DNA of 64,000 nt. It comes from Nitrospirota bacterium. Lineage in GTDB: Bacteria > Nitrospirota > Nitrospiria > Nitrospirales > Nitrospiraceae. The notes under the pieces were generated by a model that was not told where the DNA came from, made no database searches, and was given only the letters and a program-made list of their open reading frames with translations. Made by a program: the position numbers and the translations under genes. How positions within the stretch are numbered: position 1 is the stretch's first letter; each line of letters starts with the position of its first letter. The stretch spans positions 32,001-96,000 of the forward strand of contig CAVPBK010000009.1 in the NCBI GenBank assembly GCA_963701855.1. The letters are read 5' to 3'. Shown piece after piece: positions 20,141 to 45,050 of the stretch.

Positions 20141-20420
20141 TTAATACAGGCTACCAGTTGCTAGCACGTCACCGTTTGTGTGCGCTGTGTGATTGGTTTC
20201 TCTCACTGGACTTTCGAAGGAGCCGGCCATGAATGGTGCTCAGGCTTCCGAGAAGTGCGGTCTTCTAGCTCCCGATCATCAACAAATCGGTTGCTGCACG
20301 AGCAACAGGCTCAATTCGGAACAGGTTGCTGGCACCTTCTTCGCGCTCACGATCTCGTCGCTCGCTCTACAGTTATCAGCACAAAGCAAAAAACGGTTCC
20401 TGACACCTTTTCTATCCCCT
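20141..20420 (+). repeat. ~285-nt structured element, copy 2 (tandem)
   Basis: begins TTAATACAGGCTACCAGTTGC, 284 nt after the equivalent at 19857. Confidence 0.9.
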
Positions 20421-20692: not shown

Positions 20693-21463
20693 ATGCAAAA
20701 ATTAATGGCCAGTATTCTCATGCTAGCACTCCTCCTTTCGCCAGCCCTCGCAGGCAGCTTGTTGGCCGCCGACACGACTCCTCCTGCTCCTCCTGCAGGA
20801 ATAGCAATTGGCAACCCTGAAAAGGTGGACCCCTGTACCTCTTTTGCGATGATCAGTTTGCCTCTCAACTGGCCTGTGGTCGATCCCACGAAGCAACTGG
20901 GGTGGATCACACCGAAGAAACAAGAAGGGAGCGTCTTGTGCTGGGCAGCGACCACAGAGATGGCTCTAGGCTACCATGGCACGAACGTTCCGCAATGTAA
21001 GCAGGTTGATGACGAATTCTACTCTTCATCGAATCCAGGAATCTGCTGTCAGAGGGTTGCTCAGAACCTTCCGCTTACCTCTACCATATGCGATAGGACG
21101 GATTGGAACCCGCCCAACTTCAACCGGTATGGGTTCCACGTGAAGACGAATCTTACGATTACCGACTGGTCTCAGCTACAGACCTATATTTGCCTAAAAC
21201 AAAGTCCATTTATTTATTTCTCCGAATACAACGGAGGGGGTGAACATACCGTTTTGGTGTACGGATATGACGGGAGCGTGAATCATGTCTTTATCGTCGA
21301 TCCAGACAATCCTGCTACGGGCCCATCGCTTGATACTACATGGGACTTCGACACCTATTTTAAAGGCGGGGTAGATCCATATCTCGTCCATACGCGAGAC
21401 TATGTCGATATTTGTCCCAATACGTCACTAGACCCCAGCGGATCATGTCAAATTGTTTATTAA
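20693..21463 (+). CDS. secreted papain-like (C39-like) cysteine protease
   Basis: signal peptide; QEGSVLCWAA, HTVLVYGY and IVDP give a Q/C/H/D set. Confidence 0.8.
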   Translation: MQKLMASILMLALLLSPALAGSLLAADTTPPAPPAGIAIGNPEKVDPCTSFAMISLPLNWPVVDPTKQLGWITPKKQEGSVLCWAATTEMALGYHGTNVPQCKQVDDEFYSSSNPGICCQRVAQNLPLTSTICDRTDWNPPNFNRYGFHVKTNLTITDWSQLQTYICLKQSPFIYFSEYNGGGEHTVLVYGYDGSVNHVFIVDPDNPATGPSLDTTWDFDTYFKGGVDPYLVHTRDYVDICPNTSLDPSGSCQIVY

Positions 21464-21477
21464 CTAATGAGAATGCC

Positions 21478-22147
21478 ATGCGTAAGACCTCACGCTCCAT
21501 GCCAAAACTCCTTCTGTTAGTCGCAGGGATATGCGTTCAGCTCTTTGTTATCGCGGGCTGTTCGACAATCGCGCAGAAGGAGCGTGAGCAGGAAGCTGCT
21601 AACAAAGGCCTGGACCTTTTGCGTGAGATCACACAAAAGCCCACGTTTAGGCAGACATTTCAAAACTATGGATTCGATTCACCGGAGCAAGCGACCGATC
21701 TTGAATTCGGGCGTCTCCTTCAAATTTATTGGGTTCGCTTGGATCGCCTGCGGCAATTCCATTCCGGAAATGACGCACAACAACTGCTGGAACCGCCGTT
21801 CGAAGTGATACATCCGATCAAAGCTTCACGGGCAAGTTACATCCTCAATCACAGTAACATTCTCCCGGAACCACAAGACATGGAAGGCTTCGCGTTTTGG
21901 CGCATCTACCTTGATCCGTCTGCTGACACAGTTCCCACAATATAAGAATTCAAACTCGAGTTTTGTGGTCCGAATCCCAGCGCTCAATCTCTATTTTCTC
22001 GGCGACCATATCAGCGGGCAACTCCTGTTGACCGCGATCGTTACTCGACCAGAGTTTCATTGGGAGGCGGGCCAGACGCTGCCAGCTCAGGAGATATTCT
22101 CCAGACTCGTGTTAGCGGCGAGAGCCCGTGGCGACGGACCCGGTTAA
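21478..22147 (+). pseudogene. lipoprotein of unknown function, one frameshift near 21825
   Basis: lipobox IAGC; reading continues in another frame as HGQVTSSITV...VRIPALNLYFLG to the stop at 22147. Confidence 0.65.
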
Positions 22148-22194
22148 GACATCGCGTTTCTTGTGACCGTTCAACCAACCAAGGAGGGTAGCAG

Positions 22195-22497
22195 ATGAAG
22201 ACAATGTGTATGTTTCCTAAAGTGGGCATGCAAATGTTAGTAGTCGTGTTTTTCTTGGCGATCTTGGGTGGATGTATCACGCTGGACTGTAAGGACTGTT
22301 GTGGAGGGCCCGGAGGAAACTGCCCTAACGCTGATGCGTCTCTTGAACCATCCCTTGCAAGCCCCGGGCACACTTGCGTCGCTGGCAGTCTCAAATGTCA
22401 AGACCACCGCAAATGCAATCCACCACAAAAAACTTGCCAAGATGTCTATGCTGCCATCGATGCAACGACGGGGACCTGCGGTTGTTCGTGTAAGTAA
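22195..22497 (+). CDS. small Cys-rich lipoprotein or exported peptide
   Basis: AAGGAGG RBS, hydrophobic leader ending LGGC, 11 further Cys. Confidence 0.7.
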   Translation: MKTMCMFPKVGMQMLVVVFFLAILGGCITLDCKDCCGGPGGNCPNADASLEPSLASPGHTCVAGSLKCQDHRKCNPPQKTCQDVYAAIDATTGTCGCSCK

Positions 22498-22763: not shown

Positions 22764-25700
22764 ATGAGCATTCGTCGCTCCGATCAGCGTTCAGCGAATC
22801 CCTCCTTTCTGTCGATTTTAGGTCTCACGGGACTTCTTGTCTTTCTATGTCACGCCAAACCAGAGATCATTGACGATGCCTACGCCGAGACCACGTCTCC
22901 GATTACGTCATCAGGGCTGAACACGACCATTACGCACTCTGGTTCCACGTATGATATTACAGGTGGAACCAGGCCGGGGAACGGTCCCAATCTTTATCAT
23001 AGCTTCGGTGAGTTTGGAGTTCCTGCCAATAACATCGCCAACTTCCTGAACGAGACTCCCAATCTGACGACTTCCAATATCCTTGGTCGTGTGACCGGAG
23101 GGAATCCGTCTAATATTTTCGGTACCATTCAAACCACTGGATTCGGCAACGCAAATCTCTTTTTGATGAATCCGGCCGGCTTTTTGTTCGGTCCGAACGC
23201 CACCGTGAACGTCGGTGGAATGGTGTCTTTCACCAGCGCTGATTACCTCAGACTCACGGACAATGCGCGGTTCAACGCCATCCCTAATACCGCAGTGGAT
23301 TCCTTGTTAACTGCCTCGCCGCTGATCGCCTTTGGATTCCTGGGATCAAATCCCGGAGCAATCACCGTTCAGGGCAGCCAGTTCATGGTAACGCAGGGAA
23401 GCGGCATCTCGCTGGTCGGCGGGAATATCACAATTCAATCTGGCACCCTCAACGACGGCACGGTCCAACCAGCCAAGCTTACTGCCCAGGGTGGTCAAAT
23501 CAACCTCACCAGCATCGCATCGGCTGGAGAAATACTCTCCTCAAATCTACAGTTAGGAGAGAATGTAAATGGCACGTCATTCACTTCCCTGGGGGGCATC
23601 ACAATTAGTCAGGATGCCCGAATCGACACCGCGGGGGCTATCGGTGGCACCATCGCGATTCGCGGTGGTCAACTCACAATAAGGGACGGCGCTACGATCG
23701 CCAGTGAATCAAGTTCGAGCCCTTCACCATCACCAGGCTCGGTCACCATCAGCGGAGCTGGCGTCCAAATGACAGGTGCAAATGTGATGGTCAACGGAAC
23801 GAATGTATCTGTGACGGGCTCCAAAGTGACTGCGGCCAATCTCGACGGCTCAGGAGGAATGATCACAATCACGGCGGGAAGTGCGGATCATCCAGGAAAT
23901 GTAACTGTGGCTCAGAATGCCCTACTGGACGCCAGCGGTACCAGGGGCGGCAGTATTAGCATCCGAGGTAAACAGTTGGTGGTGGACAACGCCACAATTT
24001 CAGCAGACAACAGAAATGCGGACGGCGCATCTATCGCCATTAACATAAATGTTACTGGAGACCTGTCCATAACCGATGCCCGAGGGATTCCCGCGATGAC
24101 GGCGCGAAATATGGGCACGGGAAATTCTGGCGAAATACGGTTGACCTCAGGCAATTTAGTAGCGACATCAAGCTTCAAACCTTCCTCTTTCACCACTACG
24201 TTGATTGATTCCCACACCTCGGGAGAGGGTCGAGGCGGAGACGTCTGTATCACTACAGGCAATCTCACTGTAGCAGGACCAAATAGTAACGCGTTTTTCT
24301 TTATCGATAGCGGAACGGTGGGGAATGGGCGTGGAGGAAATGTCTCAATCCAAGCCAACATAGTGGACCTCAACTGGACATCAATCAGTACGGGCCAATT
24401 CAACGTAAGTGCCCTGGTGGAAGACACCAGCGGCATCAATGGTTCAGCCGGCGACTTGACCATCGCCGCCGACACATTACGGCTCAGGAATTCTATTCTC
24501 GACACAGGTGCCTTCCTTGGACTATCCGAGTTCCAGAAGGGAGGAGATATCACCATCAATGCGCGTGACATCTCCATGATGAACACCCAAGCTGGCTCGA
24601 CTGGTCTTGACGGCGGTGGGACTTTCGTTATTAAGGCCGACAGGCTCGTAACAGACTTCACCTTCTTCGAAACAGATACGGTGTCCGGACCAGGGGGGGG
24701 AGTTAAAGTTAACGCTCGCGCAGTTGAGTTGACAAACGGAAGTGCCTTAATCAGCAGTACATTCGGCGACGGCAATGCAGGAGATATATATGTGACTGCC
24801 ACTGACCATGTAAATCTCATAGGTCGTACCGGTCCAAATCCTCAGGGAAAGTTTGAGCCAAGTGGTCTCTTCAGCAACTCGTTCGGAGATTTGGGTAGTC
24901 ATGGGAATGCGGGGAATATCGCTGTGACCACACCAAGGCTAGACATGATCGGTGGTCGAATCAATACTGTCACAGCATCGAGTGGTAACGGTGGAAACGT
25001 GACGCTCAATGTAACGGATAAGATCTCGATATCTGGAGAGTTTCTTTCAGATCCGAACATTGTGCCTTCAATTTTTATCTTAGGTCCTCTTGCGCCGAGC
25101 GGGATCGTTACTCAGACAATCGGCAGCGAATCCTGTTCGGGACCCTGCGGCAATGCCGGAAACGTGTCAATCACGACTGGCTCGCTGATTATGGGCAGCG
25201 GCGCCCAGATTGATGCCGGCACCAGCGGTGCCATGCCAGGAGGCGCCATTACTGTCCATGCGACGGATACGATCTCGATGTCTGGAACATTGAGTAATGG
25301 CTCCCCTGTCGGCATTTTCAGTCGCGCGTTCTCGACCGAACCCGGTTCTGGAGCCGGCGGCAACATTGCTCTCACAGCCGGGCAGTCCGTTATGATCTCA
25401 AATGGTGCCTCCGTCTCCGCGAGTAGCACCGGACCTGGCACCACGGGCAACATTCAGATCAATGCCGGCAGCCTATTTGCGATGACAAATCATAGCTCAG
25501 TGACGACAGAAGCCGACCAGGCAAGCGGTGGCGCAATCAAGATCTCTACGACTCCCAACGGCACGGTCCAGCTTACCGATAGCAAGATCAGTGCGTCGGT
25601 TCTCAACGGTGCAGGTGGTGGCGGCAGCGTGAATATCGATCCGCAGCTCGTCATTTTTCTGAACAGCCAGATCCTGGCCAACGCGGTGAATGGACCGGGC

Positions 25701-26150
25701 GGGAATATTTCCATCACGACCAATTTCCTGTTGCCGGACGCGAACAGCACGATCAGCGCCTCCTCGCAATTCGGCGTGAACGGCACCGTGACGATTCAAT
25801 CGCCAAACGCTCCGATTAGCGGCCATATTCAGCCGCTGGGAAAGACACCACTGATCGCAACGTCGCTGCTCAATCAACGCTGCGCATCGTTGGCCGGCGG
25901 TGAGTTTAGCAGCTTCACCGTGGCAGGCCGGGACAGTTTGCCAACTGAGCCGGGCAGCTGGCTCACCAGCCCACTGGCCCTGAGCTTGGCCGGGACCGGG
26001 AGCGGCACCTTGCCCGATAAAGGTGTACGCGCAGGCATCGATAATGATCCTGCACGTGAGACCACAGTTCTGTCGTTGCGACAGATCGCACCGGCTGGCT
26101 TCCTGACCCAGGCCTTCGCGGTGGATGAGCCGACAGGCTGTCAATCATGA
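22764..26150 (+). CDS. filamentous-haemagglutinin-family TpsA exoprotein 1
   Basis: TPS domain NLYHSF, RVTGGNPSNI, NLFLMNPAGFLFG; recurring GxGGxIxI beta-helix repeats. Confidence 0.93.
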   Translation: MSIRRSDQRSANPSFLSILGLTGLLVFLCHAKPEIIDDAYAETTSPITSSGLNTTITHSGSTYDITGGTRPGNGPNLYHSFGEFGVPANNIANFLNETPNLTTSNILGRVTGGNPSNIFGTIQTTGFGNANLFLMNPAGFLFGPNATVNVGGMVSFTSADYLRLTDNARFNAIPNTAVDSLLTASPLIAFGFLGSNPGAITVQGSQFMVTQGSGISLVGGNITIQSGTLNDGTVQPAKLTAQGGQINLTSIASAGEILSSNLQLGENVNGTSFTSLGGITISQDARIDTAGAIGGTIAIRGGQLTIRDGATIASESSSSPSPSPGSVTISGAGVQMTGANVMVNGTNVSVTGSKVTAANLDGSGGMITITAGSADHPGNVTVAQNALLDASGTRGGSISIRGKQLVVDNATISADNRNADGASIAININVTGDLSITDARGIPAMTARNMGTGNSGEIRLTSGNLVATSSFKPSSFTTTLIDSHTSGEGRGGDVCITTGNLTVAGPNSNAFFFIDSGTVGNGRGGNVSIQANIVDLNWTSISTGQFNVSALVEDTSGINGSAGDLTIAADTLRLRNSILDTGAFLGLSEFQKGGDITINARDISMMNTQAGSTGLDGGGTFVIKADRLVTDFTFFETDTVSGPGGGVKVNARAVELTNGSALISSTFGDGNAGDIYVTATDHVNLIGRTGPNPQGKFEPSGLFSNSFGDLGSHGNAGNIAVTTPRLDMIGGRINTVTASSGNGGNVTLNVTDKISISGEFLSDPNIVPSIFILGPLAPSGIVTQTIGSESCSGPCGNAGNVSITTGSLIMGSGAQIDAGTSGAMPGGAITVHATDTISMSGTLSNGSPVGIFSRAFSTEPGSGAGGNIALTAGQSVMISNGASVSASSTGPGTTGNIQINAGSLFAMTNHSSVTTEADQASGGAIKISTTPNGTVQLTDSKISASVLNGAGGGGSVNIDPQLVIFLNSQILANAVNGPGGNISITTNFLLPDANSTISASSQFGVNGTVTIQSPNAPISGHIQPLGKTPLIATSLLNQRCASLAGGEFSSFTVAGRDSLPTEPGSWLTSPLALSLAGTGSGTLPDKGVRAGIDNDPARETTVLSLRQIAPAGFLTQAFAVDEPTGCQS

Positions 26151-26441
26151 CCCATCGCGCTTGCGCGTGAAGCGTCTGTCTGGTTCATCTGGTCTATCTG
26201 GATGAGTTGGTTCATCGTGAAGCGGCATGGGGAATGTTGGATGTTGAATTGTCGGCGTAGGACTCGCTCTGACGATTTCTGAACATGCACCATTCAAAAT
26301 CGGCTTTCGATTGCGGGTCGGACGCGATGGTGATGGGTGGTTCTGCGCAGATAATGAGATTTTCATGCGTTTTATGGGTACAATAGGAGCCATCGAGACC
26401 CAAATCAAAGGAATGAGTGGAGAGTTGAGGAGGAACCCACG

Positions 26442-26678
26442 ATGCGACAGACGATCAAAGCCCGCTACCATGACGGAGTCTTACAGCCGTTGGAGCCCCT
26501 AGCGCTCGCGGACGACGCGGAAGTGCAGGTCACGGTGGACACCGAGATGGCTGTCAGTGCCGAGGAAATTTTGCGACGTGCCGCACGGGTCTACCAGGGG
26601 CTCACCGCCGAAGACATCGCGCATGTGGAGGCCATCGCCTTGGACCGGCAGCACTTCTTCCGTGAACCGTCCGCCTAA
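26442..26678 (+). CDS. antitoxin, AF2212/DUF104-like
   Basis: TIKARYHDGVLQPLEPL N-terminus; GAGGAGG RBS; TAATG overlap with the PIN gene. Confidence 0.8.
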   Translation: MRQTIKARYHDGVLQPLEPLALADDAEVQVTVDTEMAVSAEEILRRAARVYQGLTAEDIAHVEAIALDRQHFFREPSA

Positions 26679-27088
26679 TGCCTCAACCCGCAGTCCTGCT
26701 TGACATCGATATTCTCTCTGAACTCCTCAAACAACATCCGCTCGTCCTGCAACGGGTACGGACCTATCTCGCCGAACACGAGCGGCTCGCCTTCTCGATC
26801 ATCACCCGCTATGAACTGCTCCGCGGGCTGAAAGCCAAACAGGCGCAGACCCAGGAGGCGGCATTTACGCTCCTGTGTCAGGCCAGCCTCATCCTTCCGC
26901 TCACTGACCAGGTGGTGGACCGCGCCGCCACGTTGTATGGTGAACTCCATCGGCAGGGTGCCCTGCTCCCCGATGCGGATCTGCTCATTGCCGCGACGGC
27001 GCTGGAAGCCCAGCGCATATTGGTCACAAACAACCTCGCTCACTTTCAGCGCGTGCCCCATTTAGTCATCGAGACCTGGAAGCGGTAA
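26678..27088 (+). CDS. vapC: PIN-domain VapC toxin
   Basis: LLDIDIL, ITRYELLRG, DLLIAATA, VTNNLAHF. Confidence 0.92.
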   Translation: MPQPAVLLDIDILSELLKQHPLVLQRVRTYLAEHERLAFSIITRYELLRGLKAKQAQTQEAAFTLLCQASLILPLTDQVVDRAATLYGELHRQGALLPDADLLIAATALEAQRILVTNNLAHFQRVPHLVIETWKR

Positions 27089-27365
27089 CGCGAGCCACAC
27101 CCTCCTGCCCGATGCAAACCTAGCTTGTCCGGATCCTGACGCGCTGTCTTCCGGTGCTCCGACAGCTCCTGTCATGGCTGCATCGGCTCGTACGACGGCG
27201 ATGGCCACATACCGGTAGCCAGGCCTCACCACCCCATCGAGTCTTTGCCCAGCTAAAGCCACAGCAGGAACCACGCGGTGGCGGGATCGAGCAATCACTC
27301 CCCACCTCGCCGTTTCCTTCCTCTGCTTCGAAGTGCCCAGCCACGCAACGACTCCATTGAGTTCT

Positions 27366-27462
27366 TTTATCTATCTGGTCTGACTGGTTGGTCTGGTTGC
27401 TTGACCCAGAGAACCCAAACAATCAGATAAACGAGACAGACAATACAGACGAGATAGACCAA
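27366..27462. repeat. family A hairpin
   Basis: GCTTGACCCAGAGAA core shared with the copy at ~19692. Confidence 0.75.
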
Positions 27463-27469
27463 AGCGCGT

Positions 27470-27510
27470 CTGAATCCATTTTGATTCTCGTAGAATCAAA
27501 ATGGATTCAG
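27470..27510. promoter_or_regulatory. tandem palindromic activator sites
   Basis: GAATC-CATTTT-GATTC and GAATC-AAAATG-GATTC forming a perfect 19-bp inverted repeat. Confidence 0.75.
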
Positions 27511-27622
27511 TTGAAATATGGCTAGTTATGTTCTCTGCCTCCTAGTTTCCTTTGACATCGCGAAATCCTGGCATTTTTAAGGCAACCAAAAAAGATTTTC
27601 CAAGGCCGACTACAGAATCCGC

Positions 27623-27638
27623 TGGCACAACGATTGCG
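27623..27638 (+). promoter_or_regulatory. sigma54 (-24/-12) promoter
   Basis: TGGCAC-AACGA-TTGCG. Confidence 0.8.
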
Positions 27639-27810
27639 CTATACCTCACGTTATGGAAGGCAGTTGTGAGTTCTGAGTGTGTGTTGTGCGTGAGTTTCGG
27701 ACAACTCAGTATCCCCCAACTTAGAACTCAGAACTAGTTCACGCTTCACGCAGCGGATATGAGACGGGATAAGGTGATCTGGTCTGTCTAGTCCATATAA
27801 CCCAAAATAT

Positions 27811-28105
27811 CTATTGCTAATAATGCCGTACAGGTTTAATACGGGGTACCAGTTGGTAGCGCGTCACTGTTTATGTGTACTGTCCGGCTGGCTTTCCTCA
27901 CTGGACTTTCAACGGAGCCGGCCATGATTGGCACCTTAGGCTTCCAAGAAGTGTGGTCTTCTCCCTCCCGATCATCAGCCTTGGTTCCTCGAAGAGCAAC
28001 GGCATCGATTTGGAACAGATGCCTGGCATCGTTTACGTACGCACGATCTCATCGCTCTCTCCACAGACATCAGCACAAAGCGAGTAAAGGTTCCTGACAC
28101 CATTC
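27811..28105 (+). repeat. ~285-nt structured element, copy 3 (more diverged)
   Basis: CTATTGCTAA..AATGCCGTACAGGTTTAATAC start, GGAGCCGGCCATG, CCACAGACATCAGCACAAAG, GGTTCCTGACACC end. Confidence 0.88.
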
Positions 28106-28188
28106 TCAGAACCTCAATACTCTCATTAAAAACGCAGGAATGGGGCATCGAAGGGAGCCGCAATTCCTATCAAACCAGGAGGGCACAG

Positions 28189-28596
28189 ATGAAAATCCGC
28201 AGATCCTTCTTCGCACTGACACTTGTCAGTCTCATATTCGTCGGTCTGCTTGCTCTAAGCATCCCGGTCCCAGGATTCGCTCAGCCGCACACATGCCAAT
28301 CAAACTTGTCGGGTCATTGGCCATCGAGCCCGTATGGGCTAGGTGGAGTTAATAGTTTCACCTTTTTGTTCGCCAGGGACTGCACAATCCCCTCTGGTGC
28401 GATAACATTAAAATGGTTCATCAACAAATATTCTGATAATTCTCCACTCTGTACTGCTACAGCTCCAGCAAATTTCACTTCTACATCGAATCCGCCGTAT
28501 ACGGTCAGCGTACCATGCGGATCCCTCCCAATTGGACTAGGGCCACAGGTGAAAGTGACCCTTTCCTACCAGACAACGTCGGGAGGCTCTGGATGA
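28189..28596 (+). CDS. exported hypothetical protein
   Basis: AGGAGG RBS, signal peptide ending GFA, 4 Cys; may extend to ~28634 through a frameshift. Confidence 0.7.
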   Translation: MKIRRSFFALTLVSLIFVGLLALSIPVPGFAQPHTCQSNLSGHWPSSPYGLGGVNSFTFLFARDCTIPSGAITLKWFINKYSDNSPLCTATAPANFTSTSNPPYTVSVPCGSLPIGLGPQVKVTLSYQTTSGGSG

Positions 28597-28677
28597 ACCA
28601 TCCTCAGCAGACTTATTACAACCGAAAACCATGACGCCGGTTTGCGCTGACAGCGTCACACTTAGTGGAGAATGGAC

Positions 28678-29136
28678 ATGAAAATCTCAGGTCTTTGCCA
28701 AAGAATTTCGAGCTTAGTGGCAGGAGGAACTCTCTTGGTGAGCTGCTTTCTACTCTCAGGCTAATATTTTATTAAGACCCATACTCTGTTCGGAGAAGAA
28801 CTCGACAAGTTTCCTTCCGTCGTTCTAACCGCGCAGAATCATGATTGTACCACTTACGTGTTCGATTGGAACGTGTCCACAATTGGTGGAGTCTCGTTAT
28901 CTAAATTCAAACCGAAGGCAACGTATTGGAGGCTGCATCTCTTTAAGTTTTCTACTGGCGATCTCATTGCCCCTGCTAACGCCAATTGGAAACTCTTGGA
29001 ATACGACACAAAAGAAACATATGAAAAGCTTACATGCAATATATTGTATCGGGCTGATCTTGACCTTACCGATAGTATCGAATCTGGGGAGCATGCTAGG
29101 ACTTACAGCCTAAACTTTTTATTACACGACGAGTAG
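28678..29136 (+). pseudogene. exported hypothetical protein with a frameshift near 28760
   Basis: GGAG RBS, MKISGLCQ... hydrophobic leader; joins the open frame ending at 29136 if one base is removed. Confidence 0.55.
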
Positions 29137-29354
29137 CGCGCGGCTCCAGCCTTGCATCGGGCCGGACAGCAAGTCAAGCCGGCTCGATGTGCGCTCTTCG
29201 TTGGGCGCAGAGACTTGTCAGGGTAGATGCTCAAAGTGTTTTTCATGCAATCAAGACTTTGGCTTAGCCACGATTGAGCAGTCTTGGCATGGCAATTGTG
29301 GAATTGACGTCAAGAAGCGTGCCGTATGATTCCTTTCGTTGAGACATCAGGAGG

Positions 29355-32300
29355 ATGAATCATGCAACGTATCTTCCTGTTTTGGATGCCGGCTCCGAGC
29401 CGTCTTTCACGATACTTGTTCTTGGACTTCTGCTACCGTGGCTTTTCTACGTACCGATTGCAAGTAACGTTCAAGCCGGAGTCCCTACGGCGATCTCTCC
29501 GACTGACGGGACTGGAAGCCCTGCCAGCCTTGGTACAGTCATTACTTCAGGAACCTCTACCGTTCCGACCAATCTATGCATCGCAAGCTGTGTGATCACA
29601 GGGGGAACCACCGCTGGCCACAATCTCTTCCACAGTTTCGGTGACTTCAATATCGGCGTATCGGACAGCGCCCGATTCCAAACGGGACTCGTCAACCCTC
29701 TCCCCGATCCAAGCGTGTCAAATATTCTTGCCCGGGTCACGGGAGGGCTTCGAATCTATTCGGAAACTTGGACAGCGCCACCTACTACCCTTCCGCCAAT
29801 CTGTTCCTAATGAACCCTGCAGGATTTTTGTTCGGGCCGAATGCCACCATCAACGTCGGCGGGATGGTGGCCTTTACCAGTGCCGATTACCTCCAGCTGA
29901 CAGATGCGCACGTTTCAACGCGATTCCCAATCTGGCAGCCGATGCATTGCTGACTGCTTTGCCGGTTGCCTCGTTTGGATTCTTGGGATCAAATCCGGGA
30001 GCCATCACCATTCAGGGAACCCAGTTCTCCGTAACAGAAGGGCAAGGTATCTCTCTCGTCGGCGGCAAAGTAACGATTCAGTCAGGCACACCTGATGGCG
30101 GGATCAGCACCAGCTCAACTTCGGCACCAAACGGCAAGATTCAGCTGGCCAGCGCCGCCTCGCCCGGAGAGTTCGACGCCGCAACGCTCCAGGCGCTGCC
30201 AAGGGAGTGATCATCGTCGTTCACCTCCTTGGATCCATCGCTCTAGCATCGGGCTCAAGTATCGAACGTCAGGGCGCGAGTACGGTTTCGATTATAGGCG
30301 GGAAATTTGTTATCTCGGTGAACAACGCGGTGCTCTCCACTCACCTCTTCGCAGACCCCAGCCTGTCAAAGACGATTTCGCTGAGCCCAGGCAGTTCAAT
30401 AGTGATGTCAAATTCTGGAACAGATCTGGGCACTGACATACAGCTCATCGCCTCGAACGTCCAGATAGACGGAGCTTCCATTATCACTAGCCCTATTGAG
30501 GGGAGTATCGGAAAGGGAGGCAACGTCACGATCATGGCTACAGGCCCTGCCTCCTTCAATAACTCATTCATCGATACGCATTCTGACGTTGCCAATGGCG
30601 GCGGCGGAGCAGTCAAGGTGTCGGCTTCGGATCTGACTCTGCATAACACCACTATTATGACAAGCGTCTTCGGAGACGGTGTTACCCCAGTGACGAGCGG
30701 CGGTGGAGGTGGGGCAGTGACATTAAGAAAATACCACAAACGGATCATTCTCCATGACCGACTCAGCAATTGATACCTCTTCATCTTATGCCGGGAAAGG
30801 TGGAGAGGTGACGTTCACGGGCACTGAGAGTGTCACTCTGACACGATGCGAATATCCATACGGATTCATTCTTTCCAGTTTTAAATAACAATGCAAATAG
30901 CGGCGCAGTGGGCGCACGGCTCTCCTGTGGTTTTCTCTTCAAGGACAGCTTTATCTCTACATCTGTCAATGGAGACGTTGCCACACCCATAACAGCAAAT
31001 AGCGGGGCAGTCAACGCTGACCGGAATAAGGAGTGTATCCTTGCTACGCTCGTCAATCGATACCAATTCCTTTAACACCGAGGGGAATTCCGGTTCGGTA
31101 ATGATAACGGCTCCCACCGTCACTATGGTCGGAGACCCGAACCTTGTCGGGGCTGGTATTACTACTGGTACACATAATTTCTCGGGAGATCCTAATTCTG
31201 GCAATGGCGGAGATATCGTGATCACGTCAACGGTAACCAACGTGACCTTCACCGGGGCACATCTCGATAGTGCGGCCGACGGCCTCGGAGGATTCGGCCG
31301 CAAAGGAGGAGACATTCGGATTAGTGGCGCTCAAAGCATCCTTCTCGACAACGGAACGGTCTTCCTGTCCTCGACAAATAGCAAGGGCAACGCGGGGAAC
31401 ATGAGACTGGTGAGCCCGCATGTGACGATCAGAGGGCAGAGTACGCTTTCAAGTTCTACGTTTGCACAAGGGAGTGCAGGAACAATCACAATCACAGGCA
31501 AAGAGAATATTGCTATCGAATCGAGTTCGGCTCTCTTCACACTCGCAGACAGTGGGAGTCAAGGGCCGGCGGGACATATCGAGTTCAATACCCCGCAAGT
31601 TGACGATTGTTGGAGGAAGTCGAGTTCACAGTGAAACCTTCGGCTCAGGCCCAGGCGGTACTGTTACCGTCCAAGGCATCACTGGTCCTGCACAGTCGGT
31701 CTTGATCAGCGATCCCGGCAGCGGCATCTTCACCAACACGCGCGATACCGGCGCGGGCGGAATATCTTCGTAATGCCAACTCGGTCACGCTTCAGAACGG
31801 CGGCACGCTCTCGGCAACAACATCAGGTACTGCATCCTCGGCCACAGGCGGCACGATCACGGTGGACGCGGCGAATACCATCACCATGAACAGTGCCTCA
31901 ATCACGGCCAAGAGCGACGGGAGTGGCGAATGCCGGCAGCATCGATCTCACCGCGATGAACGGATTTACGATGCAGAACAGTACCATCACGACACAAGCT
32001 GGACAGGGGGCAGGCGGCGGCAACATCAAAGTGACCACCTCTCCATCGGCCACAGTGTTGCTCGAGAACAGTCGGATCAGCGCCTCGGTCGCCGACGGGT
32101 ATGGAGGCGGCGGGAACATTTCGATCGATCCGCAGTTCGTGATTTTGCAGAACAGCCAGATTCTCGCGAACGCGGCCCAGGGTCAGGGTGGCGCGATCAC
32201 GATCACCAGCGAGGGCTCTTTCTCTCCGATGCGAACAGCACCGTCAAGCGCGATCTCGCTCCGGCGTGAATGGCACCGTGACAATTCAGTCGCCGAATGC

Positions 32301-32637
32301 CCCGCTCAGCGGCCATATTCAGCCGCTGGGGAAGACACCGCTGATCGCGACGTCGCTGCTCAATCAACGCTGCGCATCGTTGGCCGGCGGTGAGTTTAGC
32401 AGCTTCACCGTGGCGGGACGGGACAGCCTGCCTACCGAACCGGGTGGTTGGCTCGCCAGTCCGCTGGCCTTCGGCTCGACCGGATTCAGTGCCGGCGCCG
32501 TAGCAGAGGCAGGCACACAGGCACGCGTCATCGATCCCGCGCAGGAGACTCCCCTCCTCTCATTGCGACAGATCGCACCGGCCGGGTTCCTGACCCAGGC
32601 CTTCGCGGTGGATGAGTCGACAGGCTGTCAATCATGA
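29355..32637 (+). pseudogene. TpsA exoprotein 2, multiply frameshifted
   Basis: NLFHSFGDF, NLFLMNPAGFLFG and a C-terminus nearly identical to TpsA1, spread across many ORF fragments. Confidence 0.88.
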
Positions 32638-35546
32638 CCCTTTGCGCAAGTGCACCGGGCTCCTCACGACCACCGAACCGCGCGTATGTCTATCGCGCTC
32701 GATTCAGCGGTTTCGCGCTGTTGGCACTCGGACTTGTAGTTGGCGGCTGTGCCACGATGGACCCGAGGGAGTTAACGGCCTGTAGCTCTTATGTCATCGA
32801 GGGTTTTCGGCCAATCGCTACGGAGCGCACCGGGCGGTTTCTTGGCAAGGTCAAAGAGAACACCGCTCGCTGTCGAGGCGGAGGCAAAGCGGTCGACGGT
32901 CGCGCCCTCCCGTGGGTGGATTGGCAGAACTACTGGGCCACCGGCGACGCCAACTCACTGGCCTATGGTGCGGCGGACGGAAGTGAACACCTCGCTCCGA
33001 ACGGACGCGGCATCGACGGCGCGTTGCTCGACCTCGAGTACCAACGCATGGAGATGATCAAGTTCAACCTGTTCGACAACAGCGGGACCTACCCGTGAAT
33101 ATGTGCTCGGCCGTGGCGGAGTCGAAGGACCAGCCCTCAAAGTCTGGAACTCCATGCGACTACCCAATGACCATCCCGATTACACCACTGTGGGCGGCGC
33201 CGGCCCGCAACTCTGCCACGGCGATTTAATCCGCTTCCGCACCCCCACTGGCATCTGCAACGACATCACAAATCCTCTCATGGGGTCGACCGCGATGCCT
33301 TTCGCCCGCAACGTCCAGTTCGAGACCACCTTTCCAGACCTGGGAAAGAATGAGGTGGCCAAGAACCGGCACGGCGATCGGCTCGGCTTACTCAAACCGG
33401 ATCCGCAGGTGATCAGTCGCAAGCTGTTCACTCGGGTGCAATCAGAGCCGGACAAGTGCAAGGCGGACTCCGGATTGCCTGGCGGTTCCGTTGAAGCCAA
33501 TTGCGATTATAAACCGGCCCCGTTTTTCAATGTCCTCGCCGCCTTCTGGATCCAATTTATGACTCACGATTGGTTCTCCCATCTGTACCAAGGGGACAAC
33601 TCCCCTCAACACATGGCCATGGGCTGCGCGACACATCTGGTCAACAACATTGATACGCCTCTTTCGCCGGACGATGTTGCCAGGCTCGGATGCCGCCCAG
33701 ATGATCGGATTGATCAGGCCATGATGGCCGAGGCCAATGACCCGCCGTCCTTCACCGAGAAGGGCAAGGAATATCTATCCCGGGCGTACAAGACGACCCA
33801 CAATAACGTCACAGCGTGGTGGGATGCGTCACAGCTCTATGGTTACGATGATAAGTCTCGTAGTCGCGTGAAGCGCGATCCCAATGACCGGGCCAAGCTG
33901 CGCCTCGATCCGGTGCGAGCCGGCGATCCGCTGGGTTACCTGCCGGTGTTCGAGGCAAGCGATCCGATCAATGGCGTATGGCGCGGCCAGGAAGCGACGG
34001 CCTTCCCGGATAATTGGTCTATCGGTCTGAGTTTCTTCCACAACGTGTTCGCCCGAGAGCACAACCGGTTCGTGGACGAGTTCCGCAGATTGCAGCGGGA
34101 CGAGCAGATGAAGGACATCGACAGCGGGCTGCGCAATCCTCTGAACCCGGAGCGAGACATTCCTTACCAGTGACGTCACCGACGACGAACTCTTCGAAAT
34201 TGGTCGGCTCGTGGTCTCAGCCGAGATTGCCAAAATCCACACCACCGAGTGGACGACCCAACTACTCTATGACGAGCCGCTCTACCTGGGCATGAATGCC
34301 AATTGGCACGGTCTCCTGCGCGAGGACGACCCGGTCTCGGCAGCGATCGAGAAGATCGTGGTACAGAACTTCGGCAAATCCCACGACGCCAAGAAGGCAA
34401 ATCAGTGGTATTCCGTCTTCGCCGCAGGATCAGGGATTTTCGGGTTGGGCAGCCACGTCTATGCCGACGATGCGATCTTCGCCCTCTATGATCCGAAGAA
34501 GACAGACATCTGGAGCCTCAACAAACTGAACCACATCAACGGGGGGGTCAACCACTTCGGTTCGCCGTTCAACTTCCCCGAGGAGTTCGTCACCGTCTAT
34601 CGGCTGCACACCATGGTCCCCGATCTGATTGAGTACACAGAATTGGCGGACGATCCTCGTACCATCCGAGACAAAATCCCGGTGCTGGAGACTTTCCGGG
34701 GGAAGGCTACGCCGGCGATGCGAGAGCGAGGACTCGCCAATTGGGGCTTGTCAATGGGCCGCCAGCCGCTCGGACGGCTCACGCTACAGAACCATCCCCA
34801 GTTCCTGCAAAACTTGCCGATGGATCGCTTTCACACAAACACCGACAAAATCGACGTCGCGGCGCTCGACCTGATCCGCGACCGCGAGCGCGGCGTACCG
34901 CGCTTCAATGAATTTCGCCGGCAGTACGGACTCAAGACCCTGACGAGCTTCGACGACTTTGTGGACCAGCGACTACCCAAGGACTCGAAGGAGCGCATGC
35001 GGCAAGAAGAATTGATACGCCTCCTCCGCGAGGTTTACGGCCAGCACACGTGTGACGCGTCAAAGACAATTACCGATGCGCAAAAGAACGACGACGGGAC
35101 ATGGATCAACGACTGCCTTGGCCACCCCAACGGCAGTATGGTGGACAACATTGAGGACGTGGACACGGTCGTGGGCTGGCTCGCTGAATTTCCTCGGCCT
35201 CATGGCTTCGCCATTTCCGAGACCCAGTTCCAGGTATTCATCCTCAATGCTTCGCAGGCGCCTGTTCAGCGACCGGTTCTTCACCTCCAGCTTCCGTCCT
35301 GAGTTCTACACGCATCTTGGTGTGGACTGGGTCATGAACAATGGCCCGGGCGGCAAGAACATGGAGCCAAACAAATCGAACGGCCACGAGGTGGACGTGT
35401 CGCCCCTCAAGCGCGTGTTACAGCGGACCATCCCGGAATTAGTGCCGGAGCTTGAGCACGTGGTCAACGTGTTCGACCCCTGGGCCCGCGACCGTGGGAA
35501 GTATTACGCCTTGCAGCCACCGCCGGATCGAAAGGCGGCACAGTGA
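32634..35546 (+). pseudogene. animal-heme-peroxidase family (alpha-dioxygenase-like) lipoprotein, 3 frameshifts
   Basis: VVGGC lipobox; WIQFMTHDWF, WWDASQLYG, REHN, KIHTTEWT, VYRLH, DRERGVPRFNEFRR; +1 indels near 33093, 34168 and 35255. Confidence 0.85.
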
Positions 35547-35731
35547 CCGAGAAGGACAGGCGCACGAGTCTGAGTGAGCCGATGGGAGGCATGAGCGCAG
35601 GCGCTGGGCAAGTGGCAAGTGGTCAGTGGCGAGTGGATGACATACGGATTCTGTCGTTGCGTCAGATCGCGCCGGTCGGGTTCCTGATCCGGGCCTTTTC
35701 GCTGGACTCGTCGGCGGGCTGTCAATCATGA
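35543..35731 (+). repeat. orphan third copy of the TpsA C-terminal tail
   Basis: LSLRQIAPVGFLIRAFSLDSSAGCQS* versus LSLRQIAPAGFLTQAFAVDE[P/S]TGCQS*. Confidence 0.85.
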
Positions 35732-37534
35732 CCCATTCGCACTGGGGAACCGGCACATGCCTGCGCCCCTTGGTTCGTCAAAGCAACTCTTTCCCGGTAT
35801 CGGTCTCACCATGGTCATGCTATTGGCATCTACTTCAGTCTTCGCACAGACTGCGCTCGACCCGACGGGGCGATCAGGCGAACCGCTCGGCCCCCTGAAG
35901 GAAGAATTTCAGCGGCCCAAGCCGCCTCCAAGTCCCGTGCTTCCCATCGTCCCACTCACGCCGGAGACCGGGGTGCCGACACAGCCCGGCACGGTGCAGG
36001 TATTCGTCCGTGACGTGAACGTGATCGGCAACACCGCCTTTTCGGATAAGGAGATCGCCGAGGTGACGACCCCCTTCAAGAACCGGACGTTGGTTACCGA
36101 GGATCTTGAACGGCTCAGGCTGGCCCTCACCCTCCTCTACATCAACAAGGGCTACCTGACCTCCGGCGCGATCATCCCCGACCAGGACGTCACGTCTGGC
36201 GAAATCACGGTGCAGATCATCGAAGGGAAGCTCACTCGGATCGACGTCGAGGGCAACCGCTGGTTCCGTTCGTCCTACCTGCGCGACCGCCTCTCGCTCG
36301 GCATCCGCACGCCGGTGACGCTCGGCCCCTTACAGGAACAGCTGCAACTCTTGCAGCAAGATCGCCGGATCGAGCGCGTCAATGCGGAACTGCGGCCCGG
36401 CGATACAGCGAGGCGACAGCCTGTTGAACGTGCGCGTGGCGGACCGGAATCCATTTCATGCCACGATGGAGGTCAACAACTACCTGACGCCACTGGTCGG
36501 AGAATTCCGTGGGGTCGGCACCCTCGTCCACGACAACCTGACAGGCCACGGAGACCCGCTCAGACTCAGCTATGGCCAGTCGAGCGGCGCCTTTCCGATG
36601 GTGGACGCCTCGTACGCCCTCCCCTTCAACCGATACGGGACGACCTTTTCTCCGTACTACCGGCGCACCGGCTTCAAACTCATCGAGCCGCCCTTCACTC
36701 CGCTGAACATCAAGTCCAACTCGGAGATCATCGGCATGAGTCTCCGCCATCCGATTTATAAGACCGTGACCGACGAGGTGGCGCTCTCGATCATCGGGGA
36801 GCATCTCTTCACCCAAAGCTTTCTCTTCAACGGCACCCCTGACCAGATGACGTTCAATTCGTTTCCCGGTTATCAGAATGGGGCGGCAACGGTCTCGGCA
36901 CTCCGTTTCGCGCAGGACTGGACCCACCGCACGCTCGATACCGTGCTGGCCGTCCGCTCGCGATTTAGCGTCGGCTTGAACGTGCTGGGTGCGACCATCA
37001 ATGCGAACCCCGACACACCCGACGGCCAATTCTTCTCCTGGCTGGGCCAGGCGCAGGGGATTAAACAGTTCGGTGAGAATTTGTTCGGCATGCAGCTCCT
37101 CGGTCACATGGACCTGCAACTCACCAACTCACCACTGTTTCCAGTCGAGCAGGTATCGCTCGGCGGCCGGTACACGGTGCGCGGTTACCGCGAGGTGACC
37201 ATCCTGCGCGACAACTCGTTCATGGCTTCGGTCGAGCCCCGCTTTCCGTTGGTCCGCTGGGCAAACGGGCAACCGATGTTCCAGTTCGCACCCTTCGTGG
37301 ATGTCGCGCACGGATGGAACATCGGCGCGCAACCACGCAACCGTGATTACCCCACTCGCCTTTTCCACCAACACGCTCGCCAGCGTGGGCGCCGGTCTCC
37401 GGTGGAATATCCTGCCGGACGACAAGGCCAGCTTCGAAGTCTATTGGGGGCAGCAACTGAACCACGTGCCAAGCATCGGCAACACGATTCAGGGTCATGG
37501 AGTGCATCTGGGTATTGTGGTCAATCTTTTCTAA
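35728..37534 (+). pseudogene. ShlB/FhaC-family TpsB transporter, frameshifted
   Basis: POTRA YINKGYLTSGA, IIEG; VRGY motif; C-terminal Phe; indels near 36405 and 37330 and possibly near the start. Confidence 0.88.
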
Positions 37535-37668
37535 CAGGAGCTGAGGTCAAGGTTAAGCGTCTGCAGCGAAGATCAAACTACTCTTTATCTCAACCTCAAC
37601 TCGCTGAAGCCTCTAACCTTCTTCGATGTGTGAGTCGATGGCAGCAAGACATGCGCAACGGAAATGAT

Positions 37669-39979
37669 ATGAGATCTCAATCTGCTCAGACTTGCCCTGC
37701 TCTTGATCCTCGCGAGCGGGCTCGTGCTGGCCAAGACATCCGGAACGGTCGCCGCGCTCGAGCCGACTCCGGACATCTTGATGACGCAGGGGCTTCAGGC
37801 GTACCAGCGGGGTTCATTCGATCAGGCGCTCGCCGCATGGAAGCAGGCGGCAGATCTCTATGAGCGAGACGGCAAGGCTAAAGAACAGAGTCAGGCCCTG
37901 GCACAGGCTGCGCAGGCCTCGGAATCGTTAGGGCAGCTCAGTCAGGCCTTGCAGCAATTGGAACTGGCGCTGACCCTGGCTCAACAGACAGGAGATCGCA
38001 CCAGGATCGCTGCCGTGCTGGAGAATCTCGGTCGGACGTACCTGGCGGCGCGCAAACCGGACGCGGCGATGCAGTATCTGACTCAGGCGTTGGCCATGGC
38101 ACAAGCCGATGAGGATCGGCGCCTCATCGCGGCCATCCACAACGACCTCGGCATCGCTCATGTCGCGCAACAGCATGACAAAGATGCGCTGGCCGCTTTT
38201 GCTAGCAGCGCACAAGAGGCACAAGCGGCCGGTGATCGCCCTCTGACCGTGCGGGCCCACATCAATGCGGCCCGCGTGGCGTTGAAGCTGAATCAACCGG
38301 ACCGCGCGCGTAACTGGCTGGACCAGGCCTTGGATGCTCTGAAAGGTTTCGAGCCTTCGCACGACAAGGCCATGAATCTCATACAGGTGGGACTGGGCTA
38401 TCAGCAACTCCGTGCCTCTATGTCGGCCATGAACGCACCCCTGCTGCTGCGTGCGGCCGGCGCGCTGCTGGAAGCGACAACCGTAGCGGAGCAAGTCGGC
38501 GACGCAAGGACTCGCTCCTATGCCGAGGGCTATCTCGGTCACTTGTATGAAACCGAGCATCGCTACGACGAGGCATTGCAACTGACCAGACGCGCGGTCT
38601 TCTCCGCCCAGTCTGCCAACGCGCCGGAGTCGCTCTTCCGCTGGCAATGGCAGCTCGGCCGTGTGCTGGCGGCGACGGGCAAGCTGGACGAGGCCATTGC
38701 CTCTTACGGCCATGCCACCACGACCCTGCGCCCCATTCGCACGGAAGTCGCATCCGCATGGGGGAACGATGTAATAGCCGGAGAGGATTCGGTTCGCGCG
38801 CTTTTCTTTGAGCTGGCCGATCTGCTCCTCCATCGCGCCTCGCTGACGGCCGACTCGCAAGAGGCCGAGCAGTACCTGGTCCGTGCACGCGATGCAATCG
38901 AGACCTACAAGGCCGCCGAGTTACGGGATTACTTCCGGGATGACTGTGTGGATACGATGCAAGCGCGTATCACGAAAATGGACCAGCTGGCCGTCGGAAC
39001 GGCCGTGGTCTATCCCATCGTCTTTGCTGATCGTTTGGAACTGCTGGTCAGCCTCCCCAATGGGCTGAAAAGACTGACGATCCCCGTCTCGTCAATCACG
39101 CTCACAAAAGAAGTGCGCGTCTTTCGCAAAACGGTCGAAAAGCGAACGACGCGCGAGTATCTCCCACACGCCCAACAACTCTACGCCTGGTTGATCCGCC
39201 CGCTCGAGCCGGATTTGGCCTCCTTCGGAATCGATACACTGGTCTTTATCCCCGATGGCCCGCTCCGCACGGTGCCGATGGCCGCGCTCCATGACGGCCG
39301 ACAGTTCCTCATCGAGAAATTTGCGCTGGCCACCACACCCGGCCTGAATCTCACCGACCCAAAGCCGATCGACCGCGACAAGGTCCGGTTGTTGTCGAGC
39401 GGACTCACACGAGCCGTTCAAGGATTTCCCTCCCTCCCCTTCGTCGAAGAAGAAATCAATTCCATTCGTACCCTCTACCAGGGCAATCAACTATTGAATG
39501 CCGATTTTTCGACTCCGCGTCTTGAGCAAGAATTACGAGACCACCCCTATGGCATCTTGCACATTGCCACCCATGGCTGGTTTGCCTCAGACACCACGCT
39601 GTCCTATTTGTTGACCTATAACGGAAAACTCACCATTGATGAGCTGGACCGTTTGATTGGACTATTCCGCTATCGAAAAGATCCACTGGAACTCTTGACC
39701 CTCAGCGCGTGTCAGACCGCCATTGGCGACGACCGTTCGGCGCTCGGCCTGGCCGGAATAGCCATCAAGGCCGGGGCTCGGAGTGCCATCGCGACACTCT
39801 GGTTCATCAATGATGAAGCCTCGGCTACCTTGGTCTCTGAATTCTACCTGCAGCTACGAAATCCCAAGCAGTCAAAGGCACAGGCTTTGCAACAAGCACA
39901 GCAGAAGCTCTTGGCAGATCGGGTCTACGAACATCCGGCATACTGGTCGCCGTTTCTGTTGCTGAACAACTGGCTATAG
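37669..39979 (+). CDS. TPR + CHAT (caspase-like) protease, probably exported
   Basis: TPR repeats, HIATHG and LSACQT dyad motifs, HPAYWSPF; open from TTG at 37703, ATG at 37669 is one base out of frame and would complete a signal peptide. Confidence 0.93.
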
Positions 39980-40013
39980 GGGACAGGCACCCTTCCTATT
40001 GGTGCCTGTCCCC
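39979..40013. repeat. REP-like palindrome
   Basis: GGGGACAGGCACC-N9-GGTGCCTGTCCCC perfect 13-bp stem; related to the palindrome at ~6858-6940. Confidence 0.75.
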
Positions 40014-40188
40014 GTCGGGACTCCTACTGTTGTTGTCCTCGTCACTGTGCTACTGTACGCTGGCGCGGGAAGAATGTTATTTGCTTTGTTAGGTTTGTCT
40101 TGTTTATTTGGTTGATCCAGACCAACTCGATTAACTAAACAAACCGGATAAACCAGCCCGATCGCGACCTGCCTGGGAGGTGCCACCG

Positions 40189-40941
40189 ATGCGAAACCCA
40201 ACTGTTTCTCTTCTAGCAGGACTGATCCTGAGCGTGGGGCTGTATGATCCGGCTGCAACGCCGGCGGTAACGGATAAGCCTGGCGTCGCTCAGTCAGGGC
40301 TAACGGAGGATACGCCGCCTCTCGTCTACACGCCCCCCAGGAAACTGACACCACGTGCTCGCGTGGGTGGTGGATTGCGTGGAACCGACGGAAAAGATCC
40401 CGTGCTCGAAGCCTTGGTGCCGGACCATGTCGGGTACACCATCAAGAAGTCTCCCATCTTGAACTGGTTTATCTCAAAACCAACGGAATACCCTCTGAAA
40501 TTTACGCTCATCGACACTCGATCAGTCACGCCAATACATGAAGGCGGGATTCCCTCACCGGATCATGCAGGCGTCCATTCGATCAAGCTCAGTGATTGGA
40601 ATCTTGCACTGGAGCCGGACGTGCAATATCGCTGGTACATCTCCGCGATTCGCGATCAAGACTCACCATCGAAAGATATTGTAGTCGGCGGCATTATTGA
40701 ACGTAGTGAGTTCAATGCGGGCGTCGTGGAAATGCAAGTCGATCTGAGCTGCGACCGGCTAAGCATACGGAGAAATGCCGAGAATAGTTTTTGGTACGAC
40801 GCCGTATCCTGTCTGAGCGATCTGATCACCACCAATCCTCAAGATACCTCTTTCCGACGCATGCGTGCGGCTTTGCTCAAACAAGTCGGCCTCAACGGCG
40901 TAGCAGAGTGGGATCTCAAGTCGATTCCGTCAGAAAAGTAA
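40189..40941 (+). CDS. DUF928-like exported protein
   Basis: RVGGGLRG, ALVPDHVGYT, YRW, FWYDA, LLKQVGL pattern; follows the CHAT gene. Confidence 0.8.
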   Translation: MRNPTVSLLAGLILSVGLYDPAATPAVTDKPGVAQSGLTEDTPPLVYTPPRKLTPRARVGGGLRGTDGKDPVLEALVPDHVGYTIKKSPILNWFISKPTEYPLKFTLIDTRSVTPIHEGGIPSPDHAGVHSIKLSDWNLALEPDVQYRWYISAIRDQDSPSKDIVVGGIIERSEFNAGVVEMQVDLSCDRLSIRRNAENSFWYDAVSCLSDLITTNPQDTSFRRMRAALLKQVGLNGVAEWDLKSIPSEK

Positions 40942-41543: not shown

Positions 41544-42054
41544 CAGTGGACTGCTTGCTCTGGTCTGTGTGGTCTAACTGGTTTGTCTGGTTCATCTAGT
41601 TGGCCGGGTTTAACCAAATGATCGAGACAGACCAGATCAACCCTCTCCCATCACGCCCATTTCAGTTCTCTTCTCCGTTTCAAACTCAGCATTCAGAACT
41701 TCGTCCCGGTACCACCCAAGCACGACTCTTGCTGTATATCGTATTCGTTGATTGCTGGCGAGGCACGTTACAATGCGGGACGAGCGGCTACCCCGTGGCA
41801 TGGCAATGGAAGTTCTGAGTGCTGAGCGGGAAGACATAGGGTTCTGGTTCGACTTATTCGGAAGACTCAACCGCATGATCAGCAAAACCTTGCCGGCCTA
41901 TTGAAAGAACGCGACGAACTGCTCAGAATATTGAACAGTATCATTCTACCCATGCGCCGCTAGATCATGACTCGTGAAAACTCAGAACCCAGAGCTCAAA
42001 ACTCAAAACTCGGCGAAGCCGTTGACTCCGCACTTTCTATCGCCTGAGGTCTCG

Positions 42055-45037: not shown

Positions 45038-45050
45038 TGTGGACCGGTAA

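Follow-up and report, generated by a model that had tools for sequence, protein, structure and literature searches.

Several described systems resemble parts of the locus reported here, in which a two-partner secretion (TPS, type Vb) pair, TpsA and TpsB, is encoded together with an exported TPR-CHAT protease and a DUF928 protein within 64,000 nucleotides of a Nitrospirota genome (the window, G000:C9:32001-96000; genome of 4.3 Mb, 97% complete). As described in PMC5422565 and PMC11898600, CdrA and CdrB of Pseudomonas aeruginosa form a TpsA/TpsB pair with a cysteine-bearing periplasmic carboxy-terminal tail, a periplasmic cysteine protease partner, LapG, and a link to cyclic-nucleotide signalling. 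Likewise, according to the account in PMC5422565, a segment with cysteines retains the carboxy-terminus of Haemophilus HMW1 and HxuA within the pore of TpsB. On the protease side, Myxococcus DdvA is a periplasmic TPR-CHAT protein with a His-Cys dyad, described in PMC11506125 as resting until activated and as a proposed signal-activated protease; it is the only studied periplasmic TPR-CHAT that we found, and its trigger is stated there as not known. Craspase TPR-CHAT and separase, as described in the same source, also combine TPRs with a caspase-fold protease under allosteric control by a ligand or inhibitor. Furthermore, the Sinorhizobium NsrA-CyaK/CyaD pathway, as presented in PMC13001267, couples outer-membrane sensing to CHASE2 adenylate/guanylate cyclases and thereby recalls the CHASE2-containing version of the present module, and the EACC2-caspase systems of PMC8195603 associate caspase-fold domains with CHASE2, a domain whose ligands are stated to be unknown in PMC10581220. 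We found no description of a module of tail-bearing TpsA, TPR-CHAT and DUF928 in the searched literature, where the supplements of PMC8195603 and PMC3482391 could list such neighbourhoods, and the module is apparently undescribed. The locus is a copy of a widespread two-partner secretion variant that has an exported caspase-fold protein as its dedicated partner.

The new observation is that the TpsA tail and CHAT travel together. The tail is the conserved, carboxy-terminal part of a protein whose middle varies; it has no Pfam match and no Pfam toxin domain, and its profile matches 8439 clusters at 50% identity. Among 201 Nitrospirota genomes the tail profile was found in 29, whereas a TPR-CHAT orthologue was present in 30, corresponding to the same 29 plus a contig-edge fragment. 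The possibility raised in the preliminary description, that such tails occur widely without CHAT, was thus not borne out (CHAT in 29/29). TPS domains as such are present in 55 of the 201 genomes, and the 27 of these that lack the tail, including 6 within the window's family, all lack CHAT (0/27). DUF928 was found in 32 genomes, including 27 of the 29 with a tail. At the level of loci, a tail lies within 12 kb at 37 of 39 CHAT loci, paralogues included, and a CHAT lies within 35 kb of 54 of 61 tails (63 matches minus two partial remnants). The source genome itself yields a single CHAT and a single DUF928 match, and its two other TPS loci, on contig C6, lack a tail match and come with tpsB-like genes of their own. 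The 300 scored genomes of the gammaproteobacterial class of G234 gave, with one further genome left unscored, the tail in 13, a close CHAT orthologue in 12 and both in 11 (centre included), and two genomes with weaker CHAT matches carry divergent sub-threshold tails. In cyanobacterial plasmid regions, of which 8 were examined among 81 matching records, TpsA stands beside or is fused to CHAT in 7 and DUF928 is present in 6, with similar loci on plasmids of the cultured Nostoc punctiforme, Nostoc sp. PCC 7120 and Anabaena cylindrica.

Both partners carry features of exported proteins. TpsA1 has a hydrophobic amino-terminus and a TPS domain (PF05860, residues 49–269, E 5e-36), and the linked TpsB combines PF08479 and PF03865 (POTRA and ShlB/FhaC barrel) and is intact in relatives, so that the signal peptide, TPS domain and linked transporter of a type Vb system are all found; TpsA would be exported through TpsB. 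The CHAT domain (PF12770, E 9e-58) contains H624 and C670, and the intact His/Cys motifs noted in the preliminary description hold. Its export is supported by a hydrophobic amino-terminal stretch in 65 of 65 aligned CHATs, compared to 27 of 587 internal control segments, and close orthologues have about 40 residues before the first TPR. The probable signal peptide of the present copy therefore finds support in its relatives, but is only partly visible here owing to single-base insertions near 37644 (relative to 9 of 11 relatives) and 37680 (relative to 10 of 20). Across 156 distinct CHATs from three phyla the catalytic His is present in 156 and the catalytic Cys in 155, and because of this conservation cleavage of some protein by CHAT is likely. 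The CHAT of L140 has Ser at the position of the catalytic Cys and keeps Cys415 and His624; an intramolecular Cys415–Cys670 lock is disfavoured, since Cys415 persists there without Cys670. L140 belongs to a paralogue group (L136–L140) whose TpsA is very short (~425 aa) and whose CHATs have HT instead of HG, possibly a non-catalytic version. In an AlphaFold2 model of CHAT based on 18 sequences, residues 544–674 remained below 50 in predicted local distance difference test score (pLDDT), so that the dyad geometry could not be judged and a fold search gave TPR proteins only; by sequence, too, the PDB matched only the TPR region among the matches listed (60 of 81).

A complex prediction of CHAT (residues 20–758) with the TpsA1 tail reached a score of 0.71, whereas the best of three controls gave 0.00, in agreement with the interaction between the two proposed at the outset. 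Pairs that reach this mark in the calibration of the score number 116 of 157 among solved and 2 of 215 among mismatched ones, and the prediction runs shared at least 43% of their contacts. The confident contacts place tail residues 1055–1072 in the TPR groove and additionally comprise tail residues 1039–1040, with the CHAT side including residues 414–415 and 418; H624 and C670 are absent from them. The groove contact residues G77, N147, N188 and E309, as well as C415, are 97–100% conserved. Furthermore, three CHATs without the first TPRs (L164, L273, L266) pair with tails without the docking peptide. Predicted by this model and backed by co-occurrence and fusions, binding of the tail in the TPR groove is quite probable, and a role of the tail as docking ligand is likelier than one as substrate.

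A pairing of Cys415 had been recorded as an idea before the complex prediction was known. The first tail cysteine, Cys1040, occupies its alignment column in 302 of 304 tails and is shifted by one column in the other two. Cys415 is present in 154 of the 156 distinct CHATs and in 8 of 8 cyanobacterial ones. The two sequences without it belong to unrelated TPR-CHATs, and the stretches fetched around them contain no TPS gene. Natural TpsA-tail-TPR-CHAT fusions from an Acaryochloris (L260:5858–11128) and a gammaproteobacterium (L266:2109–7037) contain exactly three mature cysteines, namely those of the tail, of the position equivalent to 415 and of the active site. We infer that a disulfide between TpsA Cys1040 and CHAT Cys415 is moderately likely. 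The terminal tail cysteine, Cys1126, which this copy has, is absent from 20 of 304 tails, although partial or frameshifted records are among the 20, and several tails stop just after the docking peptide; judged from these tails, it is dispensable. Two cysteines are indeed found at both TpsA ends of the locus, as the preliminary description had it, but, with Cys1126 dispensable and the contacts away from H624 and C670, its view of the tail as a two-cysteine anchor or prodomain cut by CHAT is not supported. Its "near-identical" tails of TpsA1 and TpsA2 in fact share 78% protein identity over 130 aligned residues and 77% DNA identity over 568 nt.

These contacts bear directly on the main rival, in which CHAT takes hold of the tail and then cuts TpsA, so that the filament is released or matured, like LapG on CdrA (precedent as described in PMC5422565 and PMC11898600). 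No active-site residue lies among the confident contacts, although the model may show a resting state only, and TPR docking could serve as an exosite. Arg1056, beside the docking peptide, shows at least 90% conservation. Upstream of Cys1040 there is no conserved basic or acidic site, the terminal cysteine is dispensable, and, provided that the disulfide forms, cutting after Cys1040 would not free the filament from CHAT. With the strict tail-CHAT coupling, the dyad intact in 155 of 156 CHATs and fusions that recall the auto-processing caspase-fold domains described in PMC3482391 in its favour, we consider this rival unlikely, yet the foremost alternative. As the predicted interface needs no active site, CHAT might also act mainly as a periplasmic anchor or chaperone for the tail, with proteolysis secondary or vestigial, in keeping with L140, which retains Cys415 and His624 without the catalytic Cys, and with the HT-for-HG paralogues. 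Against such a role stand the nearly invariant dyad across three phyla and the recurring DUF928 (27 of 29 genomes) and CHASE2 linkage, which suggests signalling, and we regard it as improbable. A third rival starts from the fusions, which put CHAT at the TpsA carboxy-terminus, the position of the toxins of contact-dependent inhibition (CDI): CHAT would be cargo or an effector carried out on the tail to the surface or to neighbouring cells, for which a disulfide tether would suit as a releasable link. Among close relatives, however, CHAT (85–90%) is far more conserved than TpsA (37–51%), unlike polymorphic toxins, its gene is not followed by a small variable immunity-like gene, and TpsB passes unfolded chains as stated in PMC5422565, which makes this rival very improbable. 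The CdiA/CdiI arrangement itself was not found, the locus having a conserved carboxy-terminus, a variable middle and no Pfam toxin domain.

We tentatively favour, at somewhat less than even confidence, a TPS filament that is docked through its tail, tethered by a disulfide and controls the exported TPR-CHAT. The carboxy-terminal tail would stay periplasmic, docked in the TPR groove of the protease and linked to it by the Cys1040–Cys415 disulfide; with this 80-kDa protease bound, the filament would be kept from leaving the TpsB pore. As a ligand, the tail would further set protease activity upon binding, pulling or loss of the filament outside the cell, by analogy with the allosteric switching of TPR-CHAT proteases elsewhere; for such control of activity by the tail we see about even chances. 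The next step would be the cleavage of another envelope protein by activated CHAT. The most plausible target is DUF928, at its flexible, Arg-containing amino-terminus, and cut DUF928 would relay to any linked CHASE2 receptor. The full extension to a trans-envelope sensor, in which surface contact of a covalently wired filament leads CHAT to cut DUF928 and DUF928 is the CHASE2 ligand, appears doubtful.

The DUF928 protein, termed DUF928-like before, is a true PF06051 member (E 1e-31, 110 bits compared to a curated cut-off of 26). Its model (pLDDT 88.5) comprises immunoglobulin-like and helical domains and a low-confidence Gly/Arg amino-terminal segment, in which two arginines are invariant in 30 aligned sequences. 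The closest fold is MtxA (4Z29; Z 9.9, root-mean-square deviation 4.7, 157 aligned residues), and an atlas search with DUF928 gave only leads under 0.9. That DUF928 is a CHAT substrate remains speculative and rather unlikely. DUF928 also occurs outside the module, at L147:10453–11211 and L148:9571–10275 in genomes without a tail or CHAT match, one of them near a TonB-dependent receptor-like gene. CHASE2 was rejected as an obligate partner, being linked in 13 of 52 loci and 14 of 31 metagenome loci and not found in two module genomes. Some CHASE2 is present in 130 of 201 Nitrospirota genomes; the sole CHASE2 gene of the source genome lies on contig C12, where it adjoins a FecR gene. There (L033, C12:85147–90745), a probable outer-membrane barrel, FecR and a CHASE2 cyclase follow consecutively, which recalls Sinorhizobium NsrA-CyaK.

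A number of observations weigh against the favoured explanation. Regarding the complex, interface conservation averages 0.59 compared to 0.60 for the rest, the partner chain is modelled at a pLDDT of about 39 (at least 38), and the model output contains no explicit 1040–415 pair, the pairing being drawn from two lists of interface residues. The TPR superhelix moreover resembles LGN/Pins, whose peptide complexes are solved, and the groove pose may therefore merely reproduce these solved structures; full-length TPRs are in some cases (L144, L162, L166) accompanied by degenerate docking peptides. As to the coupling, G235, a genome of unstated completeness, has a tail-bearing TpsA and TpsB and no CHAT at E<=1e-20, tail matches occur without CHAT in G341 and G420, tail and CHAT are unlinked in G165, where DUF928 was not found, and G523 is a further exception. 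The tail and CHAT profiles were built from the same families and kin are not independent, so that the co-occurrence counts represent patterns and not p-values, and the CHAT searches in the Nitrospirota and the class of G234 scored only 3–5 candidates per genome. Some paralogues (L136–L140) have no DUF928 nearby (8 kb fetched) and carry HT for HG or Ser for Cys. Finally, an output through CHASE2 is uncertain, since CHASE2 is absent from this locus, linked in a minority of loci and not found in the module genomes G168 and G222.

Compared with the described systems, the locus differs in several respects. Unlike in CdrA/LapG, the protease is a locus-encoded TPR-CHAT predicted to bind away from its active site, and conservation in the tail concerns a single cysteine and a docking peptide instead of an intramolecular two-cysteine hook; LapG/LapD-type domains were absent from the locus and flank proteins scanned, the whole genome not having been searched for them. 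HMW1 and HxuA, in the account of PMC5422565, form an intramolecular disulfide, whereas the tail of the present system can dispense with its second cysteine and finds a co-conserved one in a partner protein. DdvA is described in PMC11506125 as a membrane anti-sigma factor thought to cut itself, in contrast to the CHAT of this locus with only a signal-peptide-like stretch and a secreted-filament partner; the scans of locus and flank proteins revealed no sigma-factor domain and no DdvA-type anti-sigma arrangement. Craspase and separase are cytoplasmic, while the ligand here would be the tail of a secreted protein. The NsrA pathway, as presented in PMC13001267, uses a beta-barrel receptor and involves no TpsA, CHAT or DUF928, and the window copy has no linked CHASE2. 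In the EACC2-caspase systems, the caspase is fused amino-terminally to the sensor, and the main text of PMC8195603 mentions neither DUF928 nor hemagglutinin nor two-partner secretion.

The gene order tpsA1, tpsA2, heme enzyme, tpsB, TPR-CHAT and DUF928, all co-oriented, was confirmed (Table 1), and an Rfam scan gave 0 matches. The heme enzyme, initially termed heme oxygenase-type, belongs to the An_peroxidase family, with no other domain match and no heme oxygenase domain. Its intact relative in L018 (1110 aa; 75% identical to the window enzyme over 357 aa) has plant fatty-acid alpha-dioxygenases as its closest solved structures (4KVJ/4HHR, E 4e-56). In the alignment to 4KVJ the distal His, the catalytic Tyr and proximal His as well as the substrate-binding His and Arg all match, residues to which we presume the roles of heme ligands, catalysis and substrate binding. 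Thus, the sequence resembles a fatty-acid alpha-dioxygenase, with heme-ligand, catalytic Tyr and substrate-binding motifs in common with the plant enzymes; unlike these, it is bacterial, longer (1110 aa in L018), a probable lipoprotein and accessory to the module, and its putative activity would be the formation of 2-hydroperoxy fatty acids. Among the 52 loci with 6 kb or more downstream (out of 77, some sharing one genome), 7 have a heme enzyme close to the tail, as does 1 of the 31 metagenome loci with 4 kb or more upstream (out of 80). Because of these low counts, we regard it as cargo and reject it as a core part of the system, to which the preliminary description had assigned it; in other relatives nearby positions are taken by subtilases. 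The tpsA 3'-end remnant upstream of tpsB is likely the scar of the duplication that inserted the dioxygenase.

Table 1 Features of the TpsA/CHAT locus, in window positions
Feature	Position	Strand	Remarks
tpsA1	22764-26150	+	intact, 1128 aa; signal peptide, TPS domain, variable middle, conserved tail; PF05860
TpsA1 tail, residues 999-1128	25758-26147	+	Cys1040 codon 25881; peptide 1055-1072 = 25926-25979
PIN-domain (VapC-like) gene	26678-27088	+	between tpsA1 and tpsA2
Small open reading frame	28189-28596		between the two tpsA genes, repeats also there
tpsA2, tail-bearing paralogue	29355-32637	+	at least 9 frame segments
Heme enzyme, fatty-acid alpha-dioxygenase-like	32634-35546	+	3 frame changes; variable cargo
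tpsA 3'-end remnant copy	35639-35728	+	just upstream of tpsB; repeat family D3
tpsB outer-membrane transporter	35757-37534	+	POTRA_2 + ShlB barrel; 2 frame changes
Exported TPR-CHAT protease	37669-39979	+	open frame starts 37703; signal peptide frameshifted
CHAT key codons (numbering from 37703)	Cys415 38945, His624 39572, Cys670 39710		
DUF928 exported protein	40180-40941	+	PF06051

The present copy contains at least 15 local frameshifts, of which at least 8 fall in tpsA2, 3 in the heme enzyme gene, 2 in tpsB and the others at the CHAT 5' end, while tpsA1, the CHAT body and DUF928 are intact and the module genes are intact in many relatives. Elsewhere in the genome, 97 orthologous genes were scored (out of 161 queries and biased toward conserved genes), and their 134 kb contain 1 frameshift, so that the damage is local and genome-wide error was rejected as its cause. 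TpsA genes on contigs C4 and C6 are likewise fragmented. The aligned parts of the heme enzyme and tpsB contain zero in-frame stops, the breaks are mostly single-base, and an extra base at 35255 is missing from 97–99% identical contigs of two sequencing runs (X1, X2), neither from the same strain. Uncorrected long-read or assembly errors are the probable explanation, and real pseudogenisation in this strain is less likely than error. Owing to the frameshifts, the window copy is a poor test object.

Upstream of tpsA1 (20693–22497, +), a C39/C70-like peptidase, a probable lipoprotein and a 100-aa cysteine-rich protein are encoded, all small and exported; in relatives, subtilases or lectin-like proteins occupy this slot instead. 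A repeat of about 280 nt, found nowhere else in the genome, is present in three copies with 78–82% identity (19852–20410 and 27831–28113); the copies flank the small exported-protein genes and tpsA1 and may mark cassette insertions. A PIN gene also lies upstream of tpsA in L020. An isolated remnant with a tpsA 3' end and a tpsB start, without module genes around it, is located on contig C3 (L036, 167954–168043). Downstream of DUF928 (41974–48988, +) follow genes for REC-PAS, an ABC-type substrate-binding protein, a HAMP-GAF histidine kinase and a sigma-54 regulator. REC-PAS and substrate-binding genes recur behind CHASE2-less modules in several relatives, in some with a TonB-dependent receptor, and possibly represent an alternative output, or synteny only. 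Regarding the TpsA genes of relatives, tandem arrays of 3–5 tail-bearing tpsA genes share one CHAT in G216 and G192, which suggests interchangeable filaments for one protease, and two loci (L025:9213–14420, L030:8026–14136) encode long TpsAs with a proprotein-convertase P domain in the variable middle.

The gene-neighbourhood pattern now points to testable residues: one cysteine per partner, an 18-residue peptide and conserved TPR residues. If the favoured explanation is true, fastening TpsA to a separate enzyme through a disulfide would constitute a new anchoring or sensing mode in type Vb secretion, and events outside the cell could control a protease inside the envelope. The sensor reading, if true, would explain thousands of unannotated TpsA tails, DUF928 and one CHASE2 input, as well as the CHAT proteases that cyanobacteria, Nitrospira and Gammaproteobacteria export.

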